DNA of 64,000 nt, from NCBI GenBank assembly GCA_029259175.1, contig JAPDJH010000009.1, forward strand, positions 18,123 to 82,122, given 5' to 3'. Shown one piece after another: positions 33,649-49,609 of the stretch; position 1 is the stretch's first letter, and each line of letters starts with the position of its first letter. The notes beneath the pieces are model-generated. The model was given only the letters and a program-made list of their open reading frames with translations. It made no database searches and was not told the DNA's origin. The translations under genes were made by a program, and so were the position numbers. Source of the DNA: Hadesarchaea archaeon. Lineage in GTDB: Archaea > Hadarchaeota > Hadarchaeia > Hadarchaeales > Hadarchaeaceae.

Positions 33649-34052
33649 GGTTCTCCCTCCTTCTTTTCTTCCTCAGGTGGTTTCTGCTCTTCCTCCTTCT
33701 TTTCTTCTTCGGATGGTTTCTGCTCGGCTTGTTGAGGTGGCTTTTCTTCGACCTGCTGCTCACCACCTTCTTTGAGCAAACCCATCCGCTTCAATAAATA
33801 TGGGGGCTCGAGTGAACGCATTTGATCCTCGTTCTGATAAACGCGCGCAATCCCCGATGACTCCGCCTTACCATGCAGACTGGCTATCTTCTCAATCACT
33901 ATCAAGTCGGGAGTGGCTTGGAGTAAAGAAGCAAGCTGATCCCGAACTTCGAGACGTTTGGGAGTTGGGGCACTTGGATGAGATATCCTGAAATTGACCT
34001 CCAATCTGCCCAGCACTGGATTCTCCTTTTTCTCCACAATCTGGAGCTCCAT
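33645..34052 (-). CDS. rps24e: Ribosomal protein S24e (eS24) with KE-rich C-terminal extension
   Basis: '[44 protein letters not shown]...[22 protein letters not shown]', then a '[17 protein letters not shown]' tail. Confidence 0.8.
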
Positions 34053-37861: not shown

Positions 37862-39121
37862 GTGGCGCGAGAGAAAACCATTCACGACCCTGTTCACGGA
37901 AGTATGCGACTCGGAGGAATCGTGCTCGATCTAATCGACACTGTGGAAGTGCAGCGCCTTCGTGGGATAAAACAACTGGGGCTCGCAAATGTTGCCTTTC
38001 CCGGAGCAAATCATTCCAGGTTCGAGCACGCCTTGGGTGTTGCTTACGTTGGGGGCCGCGTTGCCCAGGAGCTCGGGTTGGACGAACACGAGCGTAACCT
38101 GCTTCAAGCAGCGGCGGTCCTGCACGATGTGGGACACGCCCCATTCTCACACACTCTGGAGCACCTCATGGTCCACAAGCTGAAAATGGATCACATGGAG
38201 CTAACAGGGGAGATAATAGGAGGGAAAATCGATATCGAGAAATGCAGAAATGTCAAAATTCGAGCACCCCGAGTATTCAAAGTGTTGGAAAAATGGGGAA
38301 TCGCAGCAGATGAAGTCGCACAACTGTTGATCGGAAAACACAGGCAAAGATATCTAGGAGAGTTGCTACATAGTGAGGTCGATGTGGATCAGATAGACTA
38401 TCTTCTTCGGGATTCGCATTACACGGGTGTCGCGCTAGGAATGGTAGACGCAGATAGACTGATTCGAACGCTTGCGATCTCTAACGAAAGATTGTGTATT
38501 CTGGAGAAGGGTGTTGAAGCCGTTGAAGGAATGCTCACTGCCCGCGGGCTGATGTACAGTTCTGTATACTATCATCACACAGTACGATCGGCAGAAGTGA
38601 TGATGAGTAACGCCGTGGACTGGGCGCTCGACCACGACACAGACGGGAGGTTGGAAAATCTATTTTTGATGAACGATTCGCAGCTGGTGGAGGCTTTATG
38701 GGAAATAGGAGGATATGCTGCCCAAATGATGGCTCGGATCGAGTACCGGCGGCTATTCAAGACCGCCTACATGGAGCCACGTAGAGAGCTAACTGCGGGA
38801 GAAAAAAGAGAATACTTAAAACGGTTTGGAGAATTCTCCAAGATAAAAGAGATCCAAGCCGAGATTGCTGATAAAGCAAAAGTAGATTTTGGAACTGTGC
38901 TCTTAGATGTTCCAGTGGTAGACATTATCACTTCGGAGCCGCGAATCCAGAAAGTAGAAATGCCCGTGCTCTCAGAGGGCAAACTGAAAAAACTAACAGA
39001 AGTCTCATTGATTGCCGAAGCACTAAAACGCAGACAAGCGCCGCGTTATCTGGTTCGGGTACTAACGGAACCAAAGCTTGTATCTCGCGTAAAAAAAGCT
39101 GCAACTAAAATTCTGGGTTAA
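37862..39121 (+). CDS. HD-domain phosphohydrolase (dNTP triphosphohydrolase-like)
   Basis: 'HSRFEHALGVAYVGGRVAQELG...AAAVLHDVGHAPFSHTLEH' HD motif, 'DQIDYLLRDSHYTGV'. Confidence 0.7.
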   Translation: MAREKTIHDPVHGSMRLGGIVLDLIDTVEVQRLRGIKQLGLANVAFPGANHSRFEHALGVAYVGGRVAQELGLDEHERNLLQAAAVLHDVGHAPFSHTLEHLMVHKLKMDHMELTGEIIGGKIDIEKCRNVKIRAPRVFKVLEKWGIAADEVAQLLIGKHRQRYLGELLHSEVDVDQIDYLLRDSHYTGVALGMVDADRLIRTLAISNERLCILEKGVEAVEGMLTARGLMYSSVYYHHTVRSAEVMMSNAVDWALDHDTDGRLENLFLMNDSQLVEALWEIGGYAAQMMARIEYRRLFKTAYMEPRRELTAGEKREYLKRFGEFSKIKEIQAEIADKAKVDFGTVLLDVPVVDIITSEPRIQKVEMPVLSEGKLKKLTEVSLIAEALKRRQAPRYLVRVLTEPKLVSRVKKAATKILG

Positions 39122-39657
39122 CTTCGGAGGGCGCGCCACCCCAGCTCGGTGGGTTTGAGCGATCCATCCATGTATCCGAGAATCTGTAAGCGGCGGATTT
39201 GTCCTTTAGCAACCGCGAGCGGTACACCGACTTCGGCAGCCGCCCGTTCGATGGTAAGCCCGCGCTCGAGCCCACGCATGAGACCGCGGCCCACCTCGCC
39301 CACTAAAAACTCATCGGCTATACGCTCCTTCACGGCAGGATCCAGCTTAGCACGGTTCAAAATTTTCCGTAGCAGTCCGGGTCCCGGTGGCATTCTATAT
39401 TTTTTGTACAATGTGCGTTCACTGATTTTTGAACCAGCGATCGCACTTCGCAGTGATTCTAGATCTCTAACCAGTTCGAAGAGTGACGGATGAACTGGCA
39501 TTGGTGCACCTTCGCTCTGCTGTGCTTGGAGCCTGCGGCGCAACTCACCGAGTTCTTGTTCGAGCTGTCGCTGACGGACGATTCCACCACGACCGAAGAG
39601 CATGAGGGCCAATAGAGCGATTATCACCAGCATCAGAAATATATCGACCAGCCACAT
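39118..39657 (-). CDS. Membrane-anchored wHTH regulator (second copy of this architecture)
   Basis: 'MWLVDIFLMLVIIALLALMLF' TM helix, then a coiled region and C-terminal 'AAAEVGVPLAVAKGQIRRLQILGYMD'. Start at the internal ATG at 39657. The longer ORF overlaps the divergent promoter region. Confidence 0.45.
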   Translation of the reverse strand: MWLVDIFLMLVIIALLALMLFGRGGIVRQRQLEQELGELRRRLQAQQSEGAPMPVHPSLFELVRDLESLRSAIAGSKISERTLYKKYRMPPGPGLLRKILNRAKLDPAVKERIADEFLVGEVGRGLMRGLERGLTIERAAAEVGVPLAVAKGQIRRLQILGYMDGSLKPTELGWRALRS

Positions 39658-39751
39658 ATCACCGCTCAACCTAACGCGTTGAAATTTAAAAAGATGCGGG
39701 GTGAAAACGGGTAGGTTTTTATAGACCACTGCCCTAACTCTCTCGACCGCT

Positions 39752-40222
39752 ATGCGTGTGGCTGTGCAAGGACTCGGGACCGTGCCAACCACTGTGCTCA
39801 TGGTGCTAGAACAGGAGAAACCCGATGTCTGCTATGTGATATGTTCGGACTATCAGATGAACCACGTGGCAAAAGAAGCTGGGTTTGAAAAACCAAATCG
39901 TGAGCTCATAAAGGAAAAGGCTGAGGAACTGGGAACAAAGATCGAGTTCAAGCTATGTGATGTTTTCAATCCAGTATCCGTTGGTAATGTCGTTGGTGAG
40001 ATCCTCAACAAGCTAAACCCAAAAGAGGATGAGGTGGTGGTGAACTACACAGGAGGAACAGCAGTGGTACGACTGCTGCTGGGGACTATGGGCGTGGTGC
40101 TTTCAAGTATAATGAAGGCGAAGGTTGTATACGCGATAAGCTATTCAGAAGGAATGGAGATCTCTGAAGACCACACGGAAGCTTTGAAAGCGATTTTCGA
40201 ACGTCTCCGGATCATTAGCTAA
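39752..40222 (+). CDS. Minimal CARF-like Rossmann-domain protein (stand-alone, no effector domain)
   Basis: 156 aa. 'MRVAVQGLGTVP...DVCYVICS...DEVVVNYTGGTAVVRLLLGTMGVVLSSIMKAKVVYAISYSEG' matches the CARF/Csx1-N-terminal pattern (core 'TGGT(K)' motif followed by a small hydrophobic helix and 'VxY'). 6-nt gap to the downstream ThrC-like gene. Confidence 0.4.
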   Translation: MRVAVQGLGTVPTTVLMVLEQEKPDVCYVICSDYQMNHVAKEAGFEKPNRELIKEKAEELGTKIEFKLCDVFNPVSVGNVVGEILNKLNPKEDEVVVNYTGGTAVVRLLLGTMGVVLSSIMKAKVVYAISYSEGMEISEDHTEALKAIFERLRIIS

Positions 40223-40228
40223 CGGTCG

Positions 40229-41476
40229 GTGGCGGTCTTGTTTGTAAAGGAGTTGCGGTGCCTCCGATGCGGTCACCGGCACCGGCCCGAGGATAAACCG
40301 TACGTTTGCGAAAAATGTGGAGGTAAAATCGAAGTTCAGTACGACTATGAGCAAATCAGAATATCTAGAAAAACTCTGGAAAAAAGAAAAAGGGGTGTCT
40401 GGAAATACGTCGAACTCTTACCGGTAAGGAATCCAGATCGTGCTGTCACTTTAGGGGAGGGAGGTACTCCGCTCATCAAAGCCGCGCGACTCGGGAAAAA
40501 ACTTGGACTCAAACATCTTTACCTCAAAGACGAAACCCGGAATCCAACGGGATCTTTCAAAGATCGGCTCATGACAGTTGGTGTGACAAAGGTCTTAGAA
40601 TTCGGAGCAAAAACGGTAGTTACGGCGTCCAGCGGAAATGCTGCTATTTCTCTCGCCGCATACGCTGCAAAAGCGGGACTCGAGTGCTACACCTTTGTGC
40701 CCGAACGTGCTCCCGAAAGCAAGCTGGCTCAGATTTCAATACACGGTGCAGTGGTGGTGAAAGTAAAGGAGAAAGAGCGGGGTGATCCCACGTATGAACT
40801 CATGATCGAGTCTTGGAAAAGATTTGGGTGGCATCCGATTCCGAGTGCTGGAGCGTTCAACCCCTACCACTGGGAGGGTATAAAAACGCTGGCCTATGAG
40901 GTGTGTGAAGGTCTAAAATGGAGCTGCCCGGACTGGGTATTTGTGCCCACCGGAGCAGGAACTTTGCTGTCCGGGTGTGCAAAAGGCTTTTCCGAACTCA
41001 AAAGACTCGGCTTGACCAAAAACATGCCACGGATTGTCGCGGTGCAGGCAAAAGGGTGCGCTCCACTGGTACGGGCATTTAGGCAAAACATCCCGTATGA
41101 GCGGATAGAAACTTGGAGAAAACCAAAAACTGTGGCTGGAGGGCTCATAGATCCGTTCCCGTGGGATGCCGACACGGCAATCGAAGGGATAAGACGCTCG
41201 GGAGGAGATGCCGTAGCGGTGAGCGATAAAGAGATCTTGCAAGCGGAAAAAGAGCTTGCACAAATGGAAGGTGTTTTTGCCGAGCCTTCGGGTGCCGCAG
41301 GGGTGGCAGGGTTGAAGGCGCTTATAGACGAAGGAAAAGTAGACGCCTCGGATACAGTGGTTGTCGAGGTAACGGGAGGGGGGCTAAAAGATGTGCAAAC
41401 AGCGCTGGAGATCTCGAAACGGCCTAGAACGATTTCACCGTCCATTAAAGCGCTTTCCAAGCTCATCAAAATCTGA
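40229..41476 (+). CDS. PLP-dependent threonine synthase family enzyme with N-terminal zinc ribbon (threonine synthase or cysteate synthase-like)
   Basis: 'LRCLRCGHRH...YVCEKCGGKI' Zn ribbon, 'GSFKDRLMTVGVTK' PLP lysine motif, 'TASSGNAAISLAAY', 'GGGLKD'. Confidence 0.7.
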   Translation: MAVLFVKELRCLRCGHRHRPEDKPYVCEKCGGKIEVQYDYEQIRISRKTLEKRKRGVWKYVELLPVRNPDRAVTLGEGGTPLIKAARLGKKLGLKHLYLKDETRNPTGSFKDRLMTVGVTKVLEFGAKTVVTASSGNAAISLAAYAAKAGLECYTFVPERAPESKLAQISIHGAVVVKVKEKERGDPTYELMIESWKRFGWHPIPSAGAFNPYHWEGIKTLAYEVCEGLKWSCPDWVFVPTGAGTLLSGCAKGFSELKRLGLTKNMPRIVAVQAKGCAPLVRAFRQNIPYERIETWRKPKTVAGGLIDPFPWDADTAIEGIRRSGGDAVAVSDKEILQAEKELAQMEGVFAEPSGAAGVAGLKALIDEGKVDASDTVVVEVTGGGLKDVQTALEISKRPRTISPSIKALSKLIKI

Positions 41477-41491
41477 GCGTTCGGGGAAAGC

Positions 41492-41923
41492 ATGAATCGA
41501 AACATATACAGATTGCTAGCGCTGTTTGGGAGTATGTTGGCTTTGGTGGGCTTTTTCCAAGAGTGGATCACCATTAAAGCGTTCGGACAGACCATTAGTT
41601 ACTCCGGATGGTCGGCTATACAGAATGGGGCTCTTACCCCCTATTTCGAACTGCTAGGGGCGTTTTTTGGATTGCTGGCCGCCTTCTTATTGCTGGTGCG
41701 GCCGAGGCCTTATCTTAGGCTCTTGTTAATGATCACCGGAATGTTTGTGCTCATAGGGGTGGGTCTGGGAACTGCCGCATTGGAGTTAGAGCAAGCATTC
41801 GAATTTGAAAGCTTTGGAATTCTCGTAGGATGGGGATGGGGAAGCATCCTAACCATGGTGGGAGGAGTGATGCTTCTGATATCCTCTCTGGGTGTAGAAC
41901 ACATAGCAACTGCGTACTACTAA
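41492..41923 (+). CDS. Integral membrane protein (4 TM), hypothetical
   Basis: 143 aa hydrophobic. Confidence 0.4.
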   Translation: MNRNIYRLLALFGSMLALVGFFQEWITIKAFGQTISYSGWSAIQNGALTPYFELLGAFFGLLAAFLLLVRPRPYLRLLLMITGMFVLIGVGLGTAALELEQAFEFESFGILVGWGWGSILTMVGGVMLLISSLGVEHIATAYY

Positions 41924-41947
41924 AAAAAGGGAAAACTCTGGCCGGGG

Positions 41948-43000
41948 CTAACGCATTACCATAGCCATGACAGCTTTCTGAACGTGTAAGCGGTTCTCGG
42001 CCTCCTCGAAATAGAGCGAGCGCTCGTAGGAATCCAAGACCTCATCCGTTACCTCTTGGCCACGATCGGCAGGCCCGCAGTGCATGTAATAGGCGCGGTT
42101 GGTGACATCCAGCAGCTCGCGGGTGCAGATCCAGTCCTTGAACTGCTCCTGGTAGCGCTTGGCGCCCTCCTTGTCGACTTGGCTGTTGTGTGGTGGGAAG
42201 AAGCTCTTGGGAGACCATGCCTTGGGATAGACAAAGTCGGCGCCCTCGAAGGCTTCCTTCATATCGTTGACTATTTCAAAACTTCCCCCGTAGCGATCGG
42301 CGTTCTCGCGCGCGGCTTGGATAACGCTGTCTTCTAGCTCGAATCCCTTGGGGTGGGCCAAGACTACATCCATTCCGAACTGGGTGGTAATGAGGACTTC
42401 GCTCTGCGGAACCGCTAGAGGCTTGAGACCCCCTGAATAGGCGTAGGACACCACGAATTTCTTTCCTTGTAGATTTGGCTCAGCTTCGCGAGCTGCCATG
42501 ATGTCCGCGAGAGCCTGAAACGGATGATAGAGATCATCCTCCATGTTGAGCACCGGAATGTCGGCCCACCGCGCGAATTCCTCTATGATGCGATGTCCAC
42601 GACCGATGACCCATTTTGCAGGATCTCCATAAATGCGTATGGCTATCGCATCACCATAGCGACTGAGCACCCGAGCAACGTCCGAGATGGCCTCGGTGGC
42701 ATAGGGGACCATGTCTTCTGGGAGAGTGGGAGTGTAGAGGTCATTCGGGCTAAGGAAGTGTCCGTGACCGCCGAGCTGATAAATGCCCGCCTCGAAAGAG
42801 TTCCTTGTGCGGAGGGAGCGATTATAGAAGATCATGAACAGCGTGCGACCGGATAGATAAGTGGTGGGTTCCCGTTTTCGAAAGCGTTGTTTGAGATCTG
42901 CTGCCGCGTCAAGGATCGCTTTGATTTCCTCTTGGGTGAAGTCTTGGGTGTTGAGGAAGTCCTTGCCGGCCATCCTCCCCACATACGATGGTGTTGCCAA
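41948..43000 (-). CDS. Divergent ornithine/aspartate-carbamoyltransferase-family protein (unknown specificity)
   Basis: 350 aa. 'FYNRSLRTRNSFEAG' (cf. STRTR), 'HPFQALADIM' (HPxQ), 'MHCGPADRGQEVTDEV' (cf. HCLP). Motifs are present but atypical. Confidence 0.55.
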   Translation of the reverse strand: MATPSYVGRMAGKDFLNTQDFTQEEIKAILDAAADLKQRFRKREPTTYLSGRTLFMIFYNRSLRTRNSFEAGIYQLGGHGHFLSPNDLYTPTLPEDMVPYATEAISDVARVLSRYGDAIAIRIYGDPAKWVIGRGHRIIEEFARWADIPVLNMEDDLYHPFQALADIMAAREAEPNLQGKKFVVSYAYSGGLKPLAVPQSEVLITTQFGMDVVLAHPKGFELEDSVIQAARENADRYGGSFEIVNDMKEAFEGADFVYPKAWSPKSFFPPHNSQVDKEGAKRYQEQFKDWICTRELLDVTNRAYYMHCGPADRGQEVTDEVLDSYERSLYFEEAENRLHVQKAVMAMVMR

Positions 43001-44584: not shown

Positions 44585-45079
44585 ATGAACAAATCGAATG
44601 CTGACCAACGCGTGCTCCTCTACGATCCACAGCGTTGTACCGGTTGTCGTTGCTGCGAGATGGCGTGTGCCTATCAGAACTTCGGCTCGCTCACGCCAAT
44701 AAAAAGCCACATCCGGATAATCGCGAGCGAGGATGGAATCCACCGCGATGCCGTGTACTGCTGGCACTGCGAGGAACCGGTGTGTGCCGCGGCATGTCCG
44801 GTGGATGCGATAGAAAAGGACGAGCGCACGGGCTGGGTGCGGGTGAATCCGCTTAAATGCATCGGCTGTCGATCGTGCACATATGCATGTCCTGTGGCTG
44901 CCGCATGGTTCGATGAAGATCGGCGGACGGCTGCGAAGTGCACCTTCTGTGACGGGGATCCGCTCTGTGCCCGTTTCTGCTCGCCACAAGCCATACGAGT
45001 CGCCACCCGAGCGGAGGCCTCAGCCGCGCTCAAACAAATTCTCGGAGGTGCCGCGAGTGGAGGCGGAACGAGTCCTTAA
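44585..45079 (+). CDS. Polyferredoxin, four [4Fe-4S]-type Cys clusters (HycB/DmsB-like electron-transfer subunit)
   Basis: 'CTGCRCCEMAC', 'CWHCEEPVCAAACP', 'CIGCRSCTYACP', 'CTFCDGDPLCARFCSP'. Confidence 0.75.
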   Translation: MNKSNADQRVLLYDPQRCTGCRCCEMACAYQNFGSLTPIKSHIRIIASEDGIHRDAVYCWHCEEPVCAAACPVDAIEKDERTGWVRVNPLKCIGCRSCTYACPVAAAWFDEDRRTAAKCTFCDGDPLCARFCSPQAIRVATRAEASAALKQILGGAASGGGTSP

Positions 45080-45701
45080 AGCTGCTGGAGCAATCCAGGT
45101 GGTAAAAAAACGTGATCGAAAAGTGGAAGCCGCGATCAGGCCCGACCGTATACGGACGGTTGCAAGCAAGTTGTGTTCCCATGGCGCACGTTTCATCATC
45201 ATTGCCGCGGCGGATTCGGGGCTCGATATCGACTTGATCTATCACTTTGATTTGGATGGGCTAGTAGTTGCTGTAAAAACGAGAGTGCCTAAAGAGTCCC
45301 CAGAAATCGACTCAATAAAGGATATAGTGCCCGGAGCTGAATGGGCTGAGCGCGAAGCTTCAGATCTCTGCGGTGTACGCTTCCGCGGGGGCACAAACGA
45401 GCCATTGGTTCTTCCCAAAGAGGGTGCTCTGGAGACTCCTCCTCTCACGCGAGCGTTTCGGGTGCTGCCAGCCGAGGTGGCCCCCGTGGCGGAGTCCATT
45501 GCGAGCGTTGGGGCAACAGCCCCGCTGACTTCGCTTATGGAGCGCCGACGCCAAGAGGCAGGACTCGAGGCCAAAGCACCCATGGTCTACGCCACCGAAA
45601 AGGGGACTAAGGAATTGACAGAACTGATCAAGCAAGCCAGCTTCACCGAGCGCGGAGGGTTCGATCCCGAGCGTAAAAAGTTGAGAGGTGTGTACAAGTG
45701 A
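45049..45701 (+). CDS. NuoC/EchD-like 30 kDa hydrogenase subunit with C-terminal extension
   Basis: '...DSIKDIVPGAEWAEREASDLCGVRFRGG' NuoC signature. Start uncertain (GTG near 45049). The ATG ORF from 44883 overlaps the ferredoxin gene. Confidence 0.6.
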
Positions 45702-46567
45702 AGGAGTACGCTGTCTACTGGGGCTGCATGATTCCTCATCGTCTGCCCTCGATAGAAATCGCGGCCAGATATGTGCTCGAAAAGCTTGGTGTTCGGGTGC
45801 GCGAGGTTGAAAACTACACTTGTTGCCCGGATCCGATCATTGGGCGATTTATCGATAGAAAAACTGCCCTGACACTTTCTGCACGCAATCTAGCACTGGC
45901 CGAAGAACTGGGTCCAGAACTTCTAGTTCTCTGTAATGGGTGCTTCGAGACACTGATCGAAGCCGTAGAGGCTCTGCACGATGAAAACACGCGCACTGAA
46001 ATTAACCAAATCCTAGAAAAAGTTGGCAGGAAATACCAAGGAGCTATACAAGTCCGCCACGTGGTAGAAGTGCTGCACGACGATGTTGGGCTAAACCGGA
46101 TAAAAGAGGTCGTTCAGAAGCCATCGAGGGTCAAGCTCGCCGTCCACTACGGATGTCACCTTTTCCGCGAACCCAATGGTGGGGACATCTGGAGGAAACC
46201 AAAACAATTCGAAGAGCTCCTGCGTGTGATCGGAGGCAATCCAGTACTGTGTGACCACAACAGGCTGTGCTGCGGTTTTCCGACGTCACATGTGGATCCG
46301 GAGTATTCGTTGCGCATGAATCTGTTGCCTAAGATGCGGTGCTACAAACAACTAAAAATAGAAGCTGTGGTTACTGTGTGTCCAGCATGCACCATTCAGA
46401 TGGAAACTGGACAGCGCATGCTCCGCAAGTTTGGCTTGGAGACCTCCGTTCCGATAGTTCACTTGATGGAGCTCATGGCACTTGCTTTTGGAATGAGGCC
46501 CCAAGAGCTTTCGCTCAAGGTTCACCGCAGCCCCGTCGAGGATTTTGCTAGGAGGGTGTTCGGATGA
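45698..46567 (+). CDS. HdrB-like protein with two CCG domains
   Basis: 'NYTCCPDPIIG...LCNGCFETL' and 'CHLF...RLCCGFPTSH...VCPACTIQM' duplicated Cys-rich CCG motifs. Start codon overlaps the NuoC-like stop (ATGA-type coupling). Confidence 0.7.
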   Translation: MKEYAVYWGCMIPHRLPSIEIAARYVLEKLGVRVREVENYTCCPDPIIGRFIDRKTALTLSARNLALAEELGPELLVLCNGCFETLIEAVEALHDENTRTEINQILEKVGRKYQGAIQVRHVVEVLHDDVGLNRIKEVVQKPSRVKLAVHYGCHLFREPNGGDIWRKPKQFEELLRVIGGNPVLCDHNRLCCGFPTSHVDPEYSLRMNLLPKMRCYKQLKIEAVVTVCPACTIQMETGQRMLRKFGLETSVPIVHLMELMALAFGMRPQELSLKVHRSPVEDFARRVFG

Positions 46568-47697
46568 GCGAAATCGCGCGCTACGGTCCATATCATCCCA
46601 TCCACCTTGAGCCGGAGGTCTACGAGGTTCATGTTCGCGAAGGCAGGATTTCGGATGTACGTATCGAGCAGGGCTTCACTCACCGGGGGATTGAGCGCCT
46701 TCTAGAGCAGCAGTCAGTGAAGCACGGGGTTCTCTTGGCAGAACGGGTCTGCGGATTGTGCTCTCAGGCCCATGCGGAGGCCTACTGCACTGCGGTGGAA
46801 AACACGCTCAAAATCGAGCCGCCGGAGCGTGCGGCACATATTCGAACGCTTGCTTTCGAGCTCGATCGAATCCATAGCCACCTCATGTGGTTCGTGCTTT
46901 TGTTTCACTCCGTGCGCGACACTGAGGCATTAACCGTGGTGCTGAACCGGCGAGAACGGCTGATGGATCTAATCGAATCGCTGTTCGGGAATCGGGTTCA
47001 CTTCTCCATCAACACTCCGGGTGGGGTAAAACGTGACTTGCCCGCAGATGCGGATCAGCTTGTGCGCCGAACGATGGAGCACGTGCGCAATCTCGCAGAT
47101 TTCGTGAAAAACAAGGTAGAAGCGCACTCGCAACGACTGAGTGGAATCGGTGTATTGCCAAAAGAGAAAGCTAGAGCTTACGGGGTTGTAGGACCTGTGC
47201 TCCGCGGGTCGGGGATCGCCAGCGACATAAGGCGGGACGATCCGTATCTGATCTATGACGAATTGGAGTTTGACATCCCGACGGAGGACTCCTGTGACGT
47301 ACTGGGACGAACGCGTGTGCGGGTTGCCGAGCTCTACGAGTCCATCCGGATAGTTGAGCAGACCGTGAAAAGAATGCCGGTAGGCGAACTCTCGGTGGAG
47401 TTCCCATTCCCGTTGACCAATGAGGACTGCGGGCGAGTGGAGGCTCCCCGTGGAGAGCTCATCTACTTCGCGCGGCTGAGGGGGACCAGCTTTCCGGATC
47501 GTGTGAAGCTCAGACCGCCCACCTATGTCAACGACCCAGCCGTCGCCGAGATGCTCAAAGGAGAACCACTTGAAAATCTGCCGCTAGTCCTCGAGAGCAT
47601 CGACCGCTGCATTTCATGCACTAATCGCGTGACAGTAATTGATGAACAAAACGGGCATGTCAAAAAAATCTCGCTGGAGGATCTGGTGCGATGGTAG
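46564..47697 (+). CDS. Group-4 [NiFe]-hydrogenase large subunit-like protein (EchE/NuoD-type) with intact Ni-Fe ligand motifs
   Basis: 377 aa. 'GPYHPIHLEP' N-terminus. L1 motif 'RVCGLCSQAH' (RxCGxCxxxH) and C-terminal L2 'DRCISCTNR' (DxCxxCxxR), followed by a 22-aa tail. Confidence 0.75.
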   Translation: MSEIARYGPYHPIHLEPEVYEVHVREGRISDVRIEQGFTHRGIERLLEQQSVKHGVLLAERVCGLCSQAHAEAYCTAVENTLKIEPPERAAHIRTLAFELDRIHSHLMWFVLLFHSVRDTEALTVVLNRRERLMDLIESLFGNRVHFSINTPGGVKRDLPADADQLVRRTMEHVRNLADFVKNKVEAHSQRLSGIGVLPKEKARAYGVVGPVLRGSGIASDIRRDDPYLIYDELEFDIPTEDSCDVLGRTRVRVAELYESIRIVEQTVKRMPVGELSVEFPFPLTNEDCGRVEAPRGELIYFARLRGTSFPDRVKLRPPTYVNDPAVAEMLKGEPLENLPLVLESIDRCISCTNRVTVIDEQNGHVKKISLEDLVRW

Positions 47698-48548
47698 ATG
47701 AGCTCCGAGTATATCGGTTCAACGCGGGGTCGTGCAACGGTTGTGATATTGAGGTCGTCAGTGCTCTAGCGGAGCACTACGGTCTTCAAAACGTCCGGGT
47801 GGTAGAAGAGGTGGAAGAGGCAAACACCATGGTAGTTGTGGGTGTCGTAACGACGAAGACCGAGTCCCATCTGAGAGCAGCTTATGAAAAACTCCAAGAT
47901 CCCAAGCTCGTTATTGCCGTGGGGACGTGTGCCGTTTCGAGTGGAGTGTTCGATGGCTCCTACAGTGTCCGGAATCCGCCTGAGACATACATCCCAGTGA
48001 GAGCATATCTAAACGGGTGCCCCCCTAGCCCTCACTCGATCGTCTCAGCTCTCCGCGCCCTTATGGCCCGCCAAGACTCCGAGTGGACAGCGCCCAAGGG
48101 CTACAGGGGATTGCCGGTGGTCGATGCCGAGAAATGCACCGCGTGCGGAGCTTGCGCTATCGCCTGTCCCGCTAGCGCTATCGAAATCGAAGAAGCCGAC
48201 GAAGGCAAAATCGTGCGCTACTTGCACGATCGCTGCATCAGTTGTGCCACCTGCGAGCTCGTGTGTCCGGAGGACGCGGTGAGGCTGAAGGAAGAGCGTC
48301 ATCCGCTGGTGGCGGAACGAGAAAAAGCTAGGGTGGAAACGAAGTTCACAACGGTGCAGTGCCCGGTGTGTGGTAGTGGGCACATAACGGAACGGCATCT
48401 GGACGTGATTGTTGAACGGCTGAAAGAAAAAGAGGCGCTGAAAGCCGCTGCTCAGGAACTGCGCGAGCGATCGAAGCTCGAGAGGACTTGCAAGATAAGG
48501 CAGTTGGCTGTGGGCAAGCAATTGCTTTTTAAGCTCGGCTATGGATAA
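47691..48548 (+). CDS. Group-4 hydrogenase small subunit (HycG/EchC-type) fused to 2x[4Fe-4S] ferredoxin domain (EchF/NuoI-like)
   Basis: 'GSCNGCDIEV' (hydrogenase-type CxxC rather than NuoB CC), 'GTCAVSSGVF', 'NGCPP', then 'CTACGACAIACP' and 'CISCATCELVCP', plus extra 'CPVCGSGH'. Confidence 0.7.
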   Translation: MVDELRVYRFNAGSCNGCDIEVVSALAEHYGLQNVRVVEEVEEANTMVVVGVVTTKTESHLRAAYEKLQDPKLVIAVGTCAVSSGVFDGSYSVRNPPETYIPVRAYLNGCPPSPHSIVSALRALMARQDSEWTAPKGYRGLPVVDAEKCTACGACAIACPASAIEIEEADEGKIVRYLHDRCISCATCELVCPEDAVRLKEERHPLVAEREKARVETKFTTVQCPVCGSGHITERHLDVIVERLKEKEALKAAAQELRERSKLERTCKIRQLAVGKQLLFKLGYG

Positions 48549-48577: not shown

Positions 48578-49609
48578 ATGGCTCTCAAAACCGCTCGATC
48601 GCTTTTCGATCTTGTTGGAAATACTCCTCTTATCCGGATCAACAAGATACCCGAGCGCTGGGGGTTCGGAGATCTGGAACTCTACGGTAAGGCCGAGTTC
48701 ATGAACCCCTCGGGTAGTCTCAAAGATCGTATCATCGCCAAAATCCTTTCGCAGGCAATGAAGGACGGCAGGTTGAAACCGGGGATGACCATAGTGGAGA
48801 GCACGACGGGAAATACTGGGATCTCCACTGCCATGTTCGGTGCCCACCTGGGGCTGAAAGTCATGATTGTGATTCCGGCGGGCATGAGCGCTGAGCGGAT
48901 GAAGACGTTGAAGGCCTTTGGGGCTGAAATCGTTCACGTTCCGGGAGGGGAATCGGATGTGGACTTGGCTGTGGAAAAGGCACGGGAGATCGCGAGGTCC
49001 GATCCGGATCGCTACTTTTTCGTTGACCAGTTCAACAATCCGGCCAACGCGGAGGCTCACTACGAAACCACGGGGCCGGAGATATGGGAGCAAATGGGGG
49101 GTAGGATAGATGCTTTCGTTGCGACCGCGGGGACCGGGGGAACCATCACGGGGGTCGGGAGGTATCTGAAGGAGCGGAACCCGCGCGTCAAGGTCTATGT
49201 CGCTGAGCCGGCCGAGTGCCCGCTGCTTTCCAAGCAGCGCTGGGGCAGCCACAGGATTGAAGGTATCGGGGACGGTTTCATTCCGTCGATTCTGGATCTC
49301 TCCGTTCTGGACGGGGTCATCACGGTGTCGTCCGATGAGGCGATCGAGATGACCCAGCAGCTGATCCGGGAGGAAGGGCTTTTCGTCGGGATCTCGAGCG
49401 GGGCCAATGTCAAGTGCTGTTTGAAGCTCCACCGGCGGCACCCTGAGCTCAGGCGGGTTGTGACCATGCTCAACGACCACGCGTTCAGGTACTTCTCCAC
49501 GCGGCTTTTCGGTGTGAGAAAGGAGCTGAAGGTCCCGGAGCGGCCCCATCCGATCAGCGTCACCCCCGAACAGCGAAGACATCTCTCGCGGCTGGAAATC
49601 ATCGAGTAA
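48578..49609 (+). CDS. cysK: Cysteine synthase / O-acetyl(phospho)serine sulfhydrylase family PLP enzyme
   Basis: 'NPSGSLKDRI' PLP-Lys motif, 'STTGNTGIS', 'GTGGTITG'. Confidence 0.75.
   Translation: MALKTARSLFDLVGNTPLIRINKIPERWGFGDLELYGKAEFMNPSGSLKDRIIAKILSQAMKDGRLKPGMTIVESTTGNTGISTAMFGAHLGLKVMIVIPAGMSAERMKTLKAFGAEIVHVPGGESDVDLAVEKAREIARSDPDRYFFVDQFNNPANAEAHYETTGPEIWEQMGGRIDAFVATAGTGGTITGVGRYLKERNPRVKVYVAEPAECPLLSKQRWGSHRIEGIGDGFIPSILDLSVLDGVITVSSDEAIEMTQQLIREEGLFVGISSGANVKCCLKLHRRHPELRRVVTMLNDHAFRYFSTRLFGVRKELKVPERPHPISVTPEQRRHLSRLEIIE

Follow-up and report, generated by a model that had tools for sequence, protein, structure and literature searches.

Introduction

CARF domains have been studied almost only as receptors of cyclic oligoadenylates (cOA) in type III CRISPR immunity, in which the CARF domain of Thermus thermophilus Csm6 (TtCsm6; PDB 5fsh and 8jbb) and the Crn1-type ring nucleases (Sso2081 and Sis0811) are the systems closest to the protein described below. 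Stand-alone CARF proteins have precedents in Crn1, Csx15, Csx16, and Csx20, and known ring nucleases are encoded within ~6 kb of type III loci. A second group comprises the CARF-winged helix-turn-helix (wHTH) regulators Csa3 and HFX_2341, the latter of which represses cas genes in haloarchaea. Outside CRISPR immunity, the CARF-sigma54 protein RtcR, by which the Rtc operon for RNA repair is activated, responds to a non-cOA ligand and controls housekeeping genes. RtcR is a bacterial multidomain transcription factor, whereas the subject of the present study is a stand-alone archaeal CARF protein of 156 amino acids (aa), which is encoded beside the amino acid biosynthesis enzyme threonine synthase (ThrC) in a stretch of 64,000 nucleotides (nt) from a Hadesarchaea archaeon of the phylum Hadarchaeota (GCA_029259175.1, contig JAPDJH010000009.1, positions 18,123 to 82,122 of the forward strand). 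The whole of this stretch is referred to hereafter as the window.

The Hadarchaeota protein shares the T-x-G of motif II, an adenine-contacting Ser/Thr after strand 2, and the Tyr of strand 5 with TtCsm6 and Crn1. In contrast to these proteins, it has neither a HEPN nor a wHTH effector, the Lys that is essential for the binding of cyclic tetraadenylate (cA4) is replaced by Ala, and the T-S of motif I is E-V in most family members; furthermore, the family is found away from CRISPR-cas loci, is vertically inherited, and has several paralogues per genome. Its best Pfam similarity is to the N-terminal domain of HFX_2341, and a wHTH protein is encoded next door; however, the putative sensor and the HTH protein are the products of separate genes that do not always occur together, the HTH protein is predicted to be membrane-anchored, and there are no nearby cas genes to be regulated.

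Results

An effector-less CARF domain restricted to Hadarchaeota

The AlphaFold2 model of the 156-aa protein, which was based on the family alignment, had a predicted local distance difference test (pLDDT) score of 93.8 and a predicted template modeling (pTM) score of 0.89. Its topology, b1-a1-b2-a2-b3-a3-b4-a4-b5-b6(hairpin)-a5 (b, strand; a, helix), contains the six-stranded Rossmann-like core with a strand 5/6 hairpin by which CARF domains are recognized. All 50 of the top 50 Foldseek matches were CARF domains (E-values down to 2e-7), and the proteins closest in structure are binders or nucleases of cA4 or cyclic hexaadenylate (cA6). The PADLOC-DB profile PDLC01794, "CARF1--CARF", matched the protein over nearly its full length (E 6.8e-37; residues 1-153 on profile positions 2-145 of 168) and also matched 24/24 tested family members (best E 7e-48), with many weaker CARF profiles besides. 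The CARF-type Pfam matches (HFX_2341_N, Csa3_N, CARF_Card1, and Csm6 CARF) were all under their gathering cut-offs, with HFX_2341_N, the best of them, being found in 15 of the 24 members. A search of PDB sequences with the family profile returned no significant match, and the relationship to solved structures is visible by fold comparison only.

The 156-aa protein is, thus, a CARF domain without an effector and belongs to the CARF1 clade, which is TtCsm6/Crn1-like. The initial annotation of this region, which was made from the sequence alone, had recognized a CARF-like layout with the motifs NYTGGTAVV (residues 98-106) and VVYAISY (residues 125-131) and had noted the lack of an effector domain, all of which was borne out; its alternative of another Rossmann-like family, such as DsrE, does not agree with the fold obtained. 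The match to the PADLOC profile means that the family has already been catalogued as a stand-alone clade-CARF1 protein, without a new fold or superfamily, even if this profile only files it as CARF. The names of such profiles follow the CARF census of Makarova et al. (2020).

A word-indexed search identified 26 homologues with 50-73% identity and 20 invariant columns, which indicates that the open reading frame (ORF) is a real and constrained gene. When 1.84 billion cluster representatives were searched exhaustively with a HMMER profile, 29 matches were obtained in total, ~16 of which were full length. All named sources were Hadarchaeota or Hadesarchaea, all 22 loci returned by a scan in which each GTDB species was represented by one genome were from Hadarchaeota metagenome-assembled genomes (MAGs), and no relatives were found on the viral contigs of IMG/VR. 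Each MAG has 2-4 copies (three in GCA_020725895.1), and 2-3 of the loci came from the same MAG in several cases. This small family is, thus, limited to Hadarchaeota.

Conservation of the pair with threonine synthase

The stop codon of the CARF gene is followed after 6 nt by the GTG start of a co-directional gene for a 415-aa enzyme, in accordance with the closely spaced pair with a zinc-ribbon ThrC-family enzyme described in the initial annotation. Judging from its sequence, this enzyme is a bona fide threonine synthase. Its scores were higher than the cut-offs of NCBIfam NF006050 (347 bits, cut-off 303) and TIGR00260 (214.7 bits, cut-off 167.1), the Pfam domain PALP was detected at 4e-78, and the motif of the pyridoxal phosphate (PLP)-binding lysine, NPTGSFKDR, was present (K111). 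The best solved relatives were the threonine synthases of Aquifex, Mycobacterium, Bacillus, and Thermus (PDB 2zsj at 5.9e-65), with plant threonine synthase (PDB 2c2b/2c2g) also among the matches to solved structures. The initial annotation had raised cysteate synthase of coenzyme M biosynthesis as another member of this enzyme family; this identity was rejected because the score against the cysteate synthase model TIGR03844 was 85.2 bits, far below its cut-off of 324.9, while the threonine synthase cut-offs were passed. There is, accordingly, no implication for coenzyme M. The four cysteines of the predicted N-terminal ribbon are kept in all orthologues; however, since the alignment with NF006050 begins at position 4 and includes the ribbon, this element is a trait of the widespread NF006050 subfamily and is not locus-specific. 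The window encodes a second PALP-type (PLP fold-type II) enzyme at 48578-49609 (+), which is the cysteine synthase CysK (TIGR01139, 364 bits, cut-off 351), and no second ThrC.

The conservation of the pair in related genomes, on which the initial annotation had made its proposal depend, was analyzed by tblastn with ORF inspection, Pfam and NCBIfam scans of neighboring genes, and a neighbor-joining tree. ThrC was located directly downstream of the CARF gene at 11 loci (the window, L011, L005, L007, L012-L017, and L032), with L011 representing the same contig region as L001. The CARF proteins of these loci were 53-73% identical to that of the window and formed one orthologous group. Among the nine intact loci at which the distance between the two genes was measured, it ranged between -32 (overlap) and +19 nt in seven and was 74-77 nt in the other two. 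Three unrelated contexts were found upstream of the pair, namely, wHTH/HD/Lhr genes at most loci, ferredoxin (Fer4) and aldehyde:ferredoxin oxidoreductase genes at L007 and L032, and an XdhA-like molybdoenzyme gene at L012. The pair therefore survived three upstream rearrangements with its genes overlapping or nearly abutting, which argues for selection on co-expression. At L032 (3375-3825), the ThrC-linked CARF gene is broken across three reading frames, with the downstream ThrC gene being intact; this represents either a pseudogene or an assembly error.

Ligand pocket in comparison with TtCsm6

The family profile was aligned by hhalign with the CARF domain of TtCsm6 (PDB 8jbb, residues 49-203; probability 80%, E 1.4e-5). 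In this alignment, G9, T10 (Glu in most members), and V11 of motif I correspond to G58, T59, and S60 of TtCsm6, S32 to T81 at the adenine contact, T100, G102, and A104 of motif II to T133, G135, and K137, and Y127 of strand 5 to Y161. In TtCsm6, the K137A mutation abolished cA4 binding and T59A/S60A abolished cleavage, while T81 contacts adenine and Y161 is required for cleavage (PMC10897365).

Among 27 Hadarchaeota loci, the position equivalent to K137 is Ala in 96%, and position 107, one helical turn past A104, is basic (R/K) in 27/27. The sequence after strand 4, N98-Y-T100-G-G-T-A104, deviates from the CARF motif II pattern [DN]x[ST]xxx[RK] in the loss of its basic residue. At the end of strand 1, where CARF motif I has Ser/Thr, the window protein has T10 and the family consensus Glu, followed by Val at the S60 position; the catalytic Ser of motif I and Lys of motif II that characterize the positively charged pocket of Crn1 are, thus, replaced by Val and Ala. 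The columns that are kept in both paralogue clades (Q6, G7, G9, P12, C31, S32, Q35, C69, D70, F72, and N98-G102) gather at the C-terminal ends of strands 1-4, the usual ligand face of CARF domains, and those conserved in the pocket (E10, D33, D70, and N98) are either neutral or acidic, with the conserved charged residues being acidic. These features suggest that a ligand pocket has been maintained in which the elements for nucleoside recognition are kept and the hallmark phosphate-binding lysine is gone. Because of the loss of this lysine, canonical cA4 binding by the Hadarchaeota family appears to be unlikely.

Divergent wHTH gene and intergenic region

The ORF listed on the opposite strand (39118-39801, 227 aa) covers the first 50 nt of the CARF gene. 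Since its homologues are 179-195 aa long and their alignment begins at M49, the true gene is the shorter form given in Table 1, and the 227-aa form was rejected. The 33 homologues of this protein were found in Hadarchaeota only, and all are annotated as hypothetical. Its AlphaFold2 model (pLDDT 86) consists of a hydrophobic helix (residues 2-21), a long helix, and a compact C-terminal helical domain with a predicted wHTH fold. A membrane-anchored HTH protein, as reported in the initial annotation, is supported at the level of the modeled fold, and this protein may act as a regulator. Its gene adjoins the CARF-ThrC pair at 8 of the 11 ThrC-linked loci; at L035, it is accompanied by HD and TiaS genes and by neither CARF nor ThrC. 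In the window, a gene for an HD plus HD_assoc_2 protein (dGTPase/SAMHD1-like; 37862-39121, +) is convergent with the wHTH gene, with a 4-nt overlap, and this convergent pair is also kept at L035.

The two TATA-like boxes of the intergenic region are putative promoters of the divergent transcription units. The short distance between each box and its ATG suggests leaderless or near-leaderless transcripts, which is the expected archaeal pattern. No Rfam element was detected in 38500-42500.

Table 1. Features of the CARF-ThrC locus and of a related locus without a CARF gene (window coordinates unless another locus is named; TM, transmembrane).
Feature	Position	Strand	Description
Stand-alone CARF-fold protein, 156 aa	39752..40222	+	ATG 39752 to stop 40222
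Motif I loop after strand 1	39770..39787	+	G7-L8-G9-T10-V11-P12; family consensus GLGEVP; aligned with TtCsm6 G58-T59-S60-P61 (hhalign)
Motif II after strand 4	40043..40072	+	N98-Y99-T100-G101-G102-T103-A104...R107 (hhalign, conservation)
Threonine synthase, 415 aa	40229..41476	+	GTG start; PLP-dependent fold, residues 73-383; PLP lysine K111 at 40559-40561
N-terminal C4 zinc ribbon of ThrC	40259..40318	+	C11, C14, C27, C30 (CxxC...CxxC); weak zinc-ribbon Pfam matches
Divergent gene, 179 aa from M49 of the listed ORF	39118..39657	-	N-terminal TM helix, long helix, C-terminal wHTH (predicted)
Divergent intergenic region, 94 nt	39658..39751	.	Two AT-rich TATA-like boxes read from the sequence
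TATA-like box TTTTTATAG	~39715-39723	+	For the CARF-ThrC unit (putative); ~30 nt from ATG
TATA-like box TTTTTAAATTT	~39692-39682	-	For the wHTH gene (putative); ~30 nt from ATG
Zinc-ribbon ThrC divergent from wHTH gene	L036 99-2045		GCA_038874155.1, JAVZCY010000023.1

Other paralogues and genomic setting

Paralogues without a ThrC neighbor were located between the genes for GatD and phosphoenolpyruvate carboxykinase (PEPCK), after a radical SAM gene, next to MinD or CDC48, after DUF211, near FtsZ, and convergent to a cluster for an HMGL-like synthase, aspartate aminotransferase, and PEPCK. According to neighbor calls and Pfam scans, cas genes were absent within ~6 kb at all of the >30 loci examined, and the window contains no CRISPR array, in agreement with the initial annotation, which had remarked that no CRISPR-Cas locus was nearby. 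The sole repeat of the window, at 33652-33725, consists of 2.1 tandem copies of a 36-nt unit (TCTCCCTCCTTCTTTTCTTCCTCAG...) and is not a CRISPR array. The literature searched on Hadarchaeota and CRISPR did not say whether this phylum has type III systems.

Paralogue clade II (L019, L020, L023, L026, L027, L028, and L031) is repeatedly divergent from GatD and convergent to PEPCK, from which it is in some cases separated by genes for aspartate aminotransferase and an HMGL-like (citramalate/homocitrate-type) synthase. Together with ThrC, these neighbors form an oxaloacetate-aspartate-threonine theme, which may have a biological meaning or simply reflect synteny. Tandem stand-alone CARF genes were observed at L022 (6001-6945) and L023 (2508-3435), by GatD, aspartate aminotransferase, or PEPCK; the second copy of L022 has a truncated or frameshifted appearance, and tandem copies could form heterodimers. 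Several longer members (P0013, P0014, P0017, P0019, and P0020, in the range P0013-P0020; 215-226 aa) have a Lys/Arg-rich C-terminal extension of ~70 aa, which possibly binds nucleic acids. Members with this tail (L033 35-682 and L034 225-905) were on short contigs only, and ThrC did not adjoin them.

Elsewhere in the window, a cluster at 44585-48548 (+) encodes a 4Fe-4S ferredoxin, proteins resembling the 30-kDa, 49-kDa (NiFe large subunit), and 20-kDa components of Complex I, and an HdrB-like protein with a CCG domain; in its appearance, it resembles a [NiFe] hydrogenase of the group 4 type or an Mbh/Hdr-related module. A carbamoyltransferase encoded at 41948-43000 (-), which is kept near the CARF-ThrC pair at L001 and L007, scored just below all curated cut-offs (N-acetylornithine carbamoyltransferase, 274 vs 288; ornithine carbamoyltransferase, 238-244 vs 281-306). 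The G+C content of the window (1-64000) varies widely, from ~0.60 at 14-20 kb to 0.46 at 32-34 kb.

Discussion

The description of the fold and the operon, taken alone, may be regarded as nearly certain, and the mechanism that we favor to explain them goes considerably further. In this mechanism, a CARF domain was domesticated for housekeeping in Hadarchaeota and expanded to the present 2-4 paralogues per genome. The CARF and ThrC genes would be co-transcribed from a shared promoter in the divergent intergenic region, and the CARF protein would form the usual CARF homodimer. The conserved loops C-terminal to strands 1-4 would then bind a small adenosine-containing ligand other than canonical cA4, as suggested by the retained adenine and ribose contact positions combined with Ala at the cA4-essential lysine. 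The protein would work in trans on partners, with threonine synthase being the most likely partner of the window orthologue, and the activity or level of ThrC would follow the putative ligand. The cas-free housekeeping neighbors of the family, namely, GatD, PEPCK, aspartate aminotransferase, HMGL-like synthase, radical SAM, MinD, FtsZ, and ThrC, are consistent with this mechanism, which is nevertheless, as a whole, a tentative proposal that we consider to be possible rather than probable.

Plant threonine synthase offers a point of comparison because it is activated by S-adenosylmethionine, an adenosine-type allosteric control at the threonine/methionine branch point. In the plant enzyme, the ligand binds to the enzyme's own N-terminal extension and the dimer interface, whereas any such control in the present case, which is entirely hypothetical, would be exerted by the CARF protein as a separate molecule.

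Three observations weigh against a domesticated sensor acting on ThrC. A Hadarchaeum relative (L036) has an orthologous ThrC (63% identity to the window enzyme; NF006050, 357 bits) that is divergent from the wHTH gene, and the 90-nt spacer separating them lacks a CARF gene; therefore, ThrC does not need an adjacent CARF gene, which was either gained within an older ThrC/wHTH neighborhood or lost from it. Most paralogues are convergent or divergent to their metabolic neighbors and not co-operonic with them. Moreover, the basic residue at position 107 might replace K137 or compensate for its loss and thereby allow cOA binding. Accordingly, the coupling of a CARF module to a biosynthetic enzyme, which the initial annotation had considered to be unusual, stands as a conserved pair; as the defining trait of the family, it is weakened by the paralogues at other housekeeping loci and by the ThrC that lacks a CARF neighbor.

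The ThrC of L036 also lends some weight to the view that the family is a general housekeeping ligand-binding protein without a functional link to ThrC, whose adjacency would reflect operon hitch-hiking in small and slowly rearranging genomes. Besides L036, the occurrence of paralogues in many unrelated contexts and the breadth of the zinc-ribbon subtype NF006050, which deprives the ribbon of any specificity for the partnership, are in keeping with this view; the persistence of the closely packed pair behind three different upstream contexts speaks for selection on co-expression and against this view, which we consider to be rather unlikely.

The domesticated sensor also needs to be weighed against a role in defense, in which the protein is a ring nuclease or cOA sponge, similar to Crn1 or Csx20, for a type III CRISPR-Cas system elsewhere in the genome, with its position beside ThrC being incidental. 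The placement of the family in the TtCsm6/Crn1-like CARF1 group, its cA4- or cA6-binding or -cleaving structural relatives, the alignment of Y127 with the cleavage residue Y161 and of T10 of the window protein with T59, and the positive charge that R/K107 could provide are all compatible with this role. However, the equivalents of K137, S60, and T59 are Ala in 96%, Val, and in most members Glu, respectively, and the change at the first of these positions abolished cA4 binding in TtCsm6 (PMC10897365). The lack of cas neighbors at >30 family loci, the zero copies on viral contigs, and the vertical inheritance of 2-4 paralogues with conserved synteny at housekeeping loci, which is atypical for defense genes, make a role of this kind unlikely.

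An equally improbable explanation is a Csa3/HFX_2341-like transcription factor that has been split in two, with the 156-aa protein as its sensor, the divergent wHTH protein as its partner in the control of the shared promoter region, and ThrC as a regulated target, not a binding partner. It would account for the best Pfam match being to the CARF-type domain of a CARF-HTH regulator, for the winged HTH at the end of the divergent protein, for the proximity of the two genes at 8 of the 11 ThrC-linked loci, and for the restriction of both families to Hadarchaeota, but the wHTH gene occurs without a CARF gene (L035 and L036), the CARF-ThrC pair occurs without a wHTH gene (L007, L012, and L032), and the other CARF paralogues have no wHTH neighbor. 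Finally, a non-CARF Rossmann-like family (SDR/NAD-binding, DsrE-like, SLOG, or SAVED), or even a missing threonine-pathway enzyme, is barely credible in view of the CARF-typical strand 5/6 hairpin and the PADLOC CARF1 match, despite a resemblance to a dinucleotide-binding fingerprint, in which strand 1 is followed by a GxGxxP loop and strand 2 by the acidic D/E33, weak SDR and DapB matches, and one member being called "homoserine dehydrogenase" by JGI. This name, given to record P0010 and coincidentally taken from the threonine pathway, is probably an artefact, arising from the resemblance of the GLGxVP loop to the NAD-binding GxGxxG of that enzyme.

In a wider form of the domesticated-sensor proposal, exapted CRISPR sensor domains would make up a housekeeping second-messenger or metabolite-sensing network in Hadarchaeota. 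The paralogous CARF proteins would share one pocket for a non-cOA adenosine-type ligand (S-adenosylmethionine, a mononucleotide, or a linear or 2',3'-cyclic adenylate), each would dock on a partner at the oxaloacetate-aspartate-threonine node (ThrC and possibly PEPCK, aspartate aminotransferase, or GatD), and the ThrC-linked protein would be an allosteric subunit. We regard this extension as speculative and quite improbable.

Regarding novelty, the fold, the superfamily, and the matching profile are already known, as are other stand-alone CARF proteins. A literature search for CARF together with threonine synthase returned nothing relevant, and the conserved CARF-threonine synthase operon, the vertical inheritance of several paralogues at housekeeping loci within a single archaeal phylum, and the family-wide Lys-to-Ala change appear to be undescribed in the literature searched. 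The neighboring gene is also corrected from cysteate synthase to threonine synthase, which leaves no link to coenzyme M.

Against the background of CARF domains as receptors in type III immunity, the Hadarchaeota lineage offers four contrasts: it is vertical and multi-paralogous, it is effector-less, it shows a natural loss of the cA4-binding lysine, and it is set in amino acid and central metabolism loci. As a soluble protein of 156 aa, the window orthologue is a small and inexpensive target for finding a new CARF ligand. If the proposed mechanism is true, this family would be a clean case of a defense sensor that was recruited to housekeeping.

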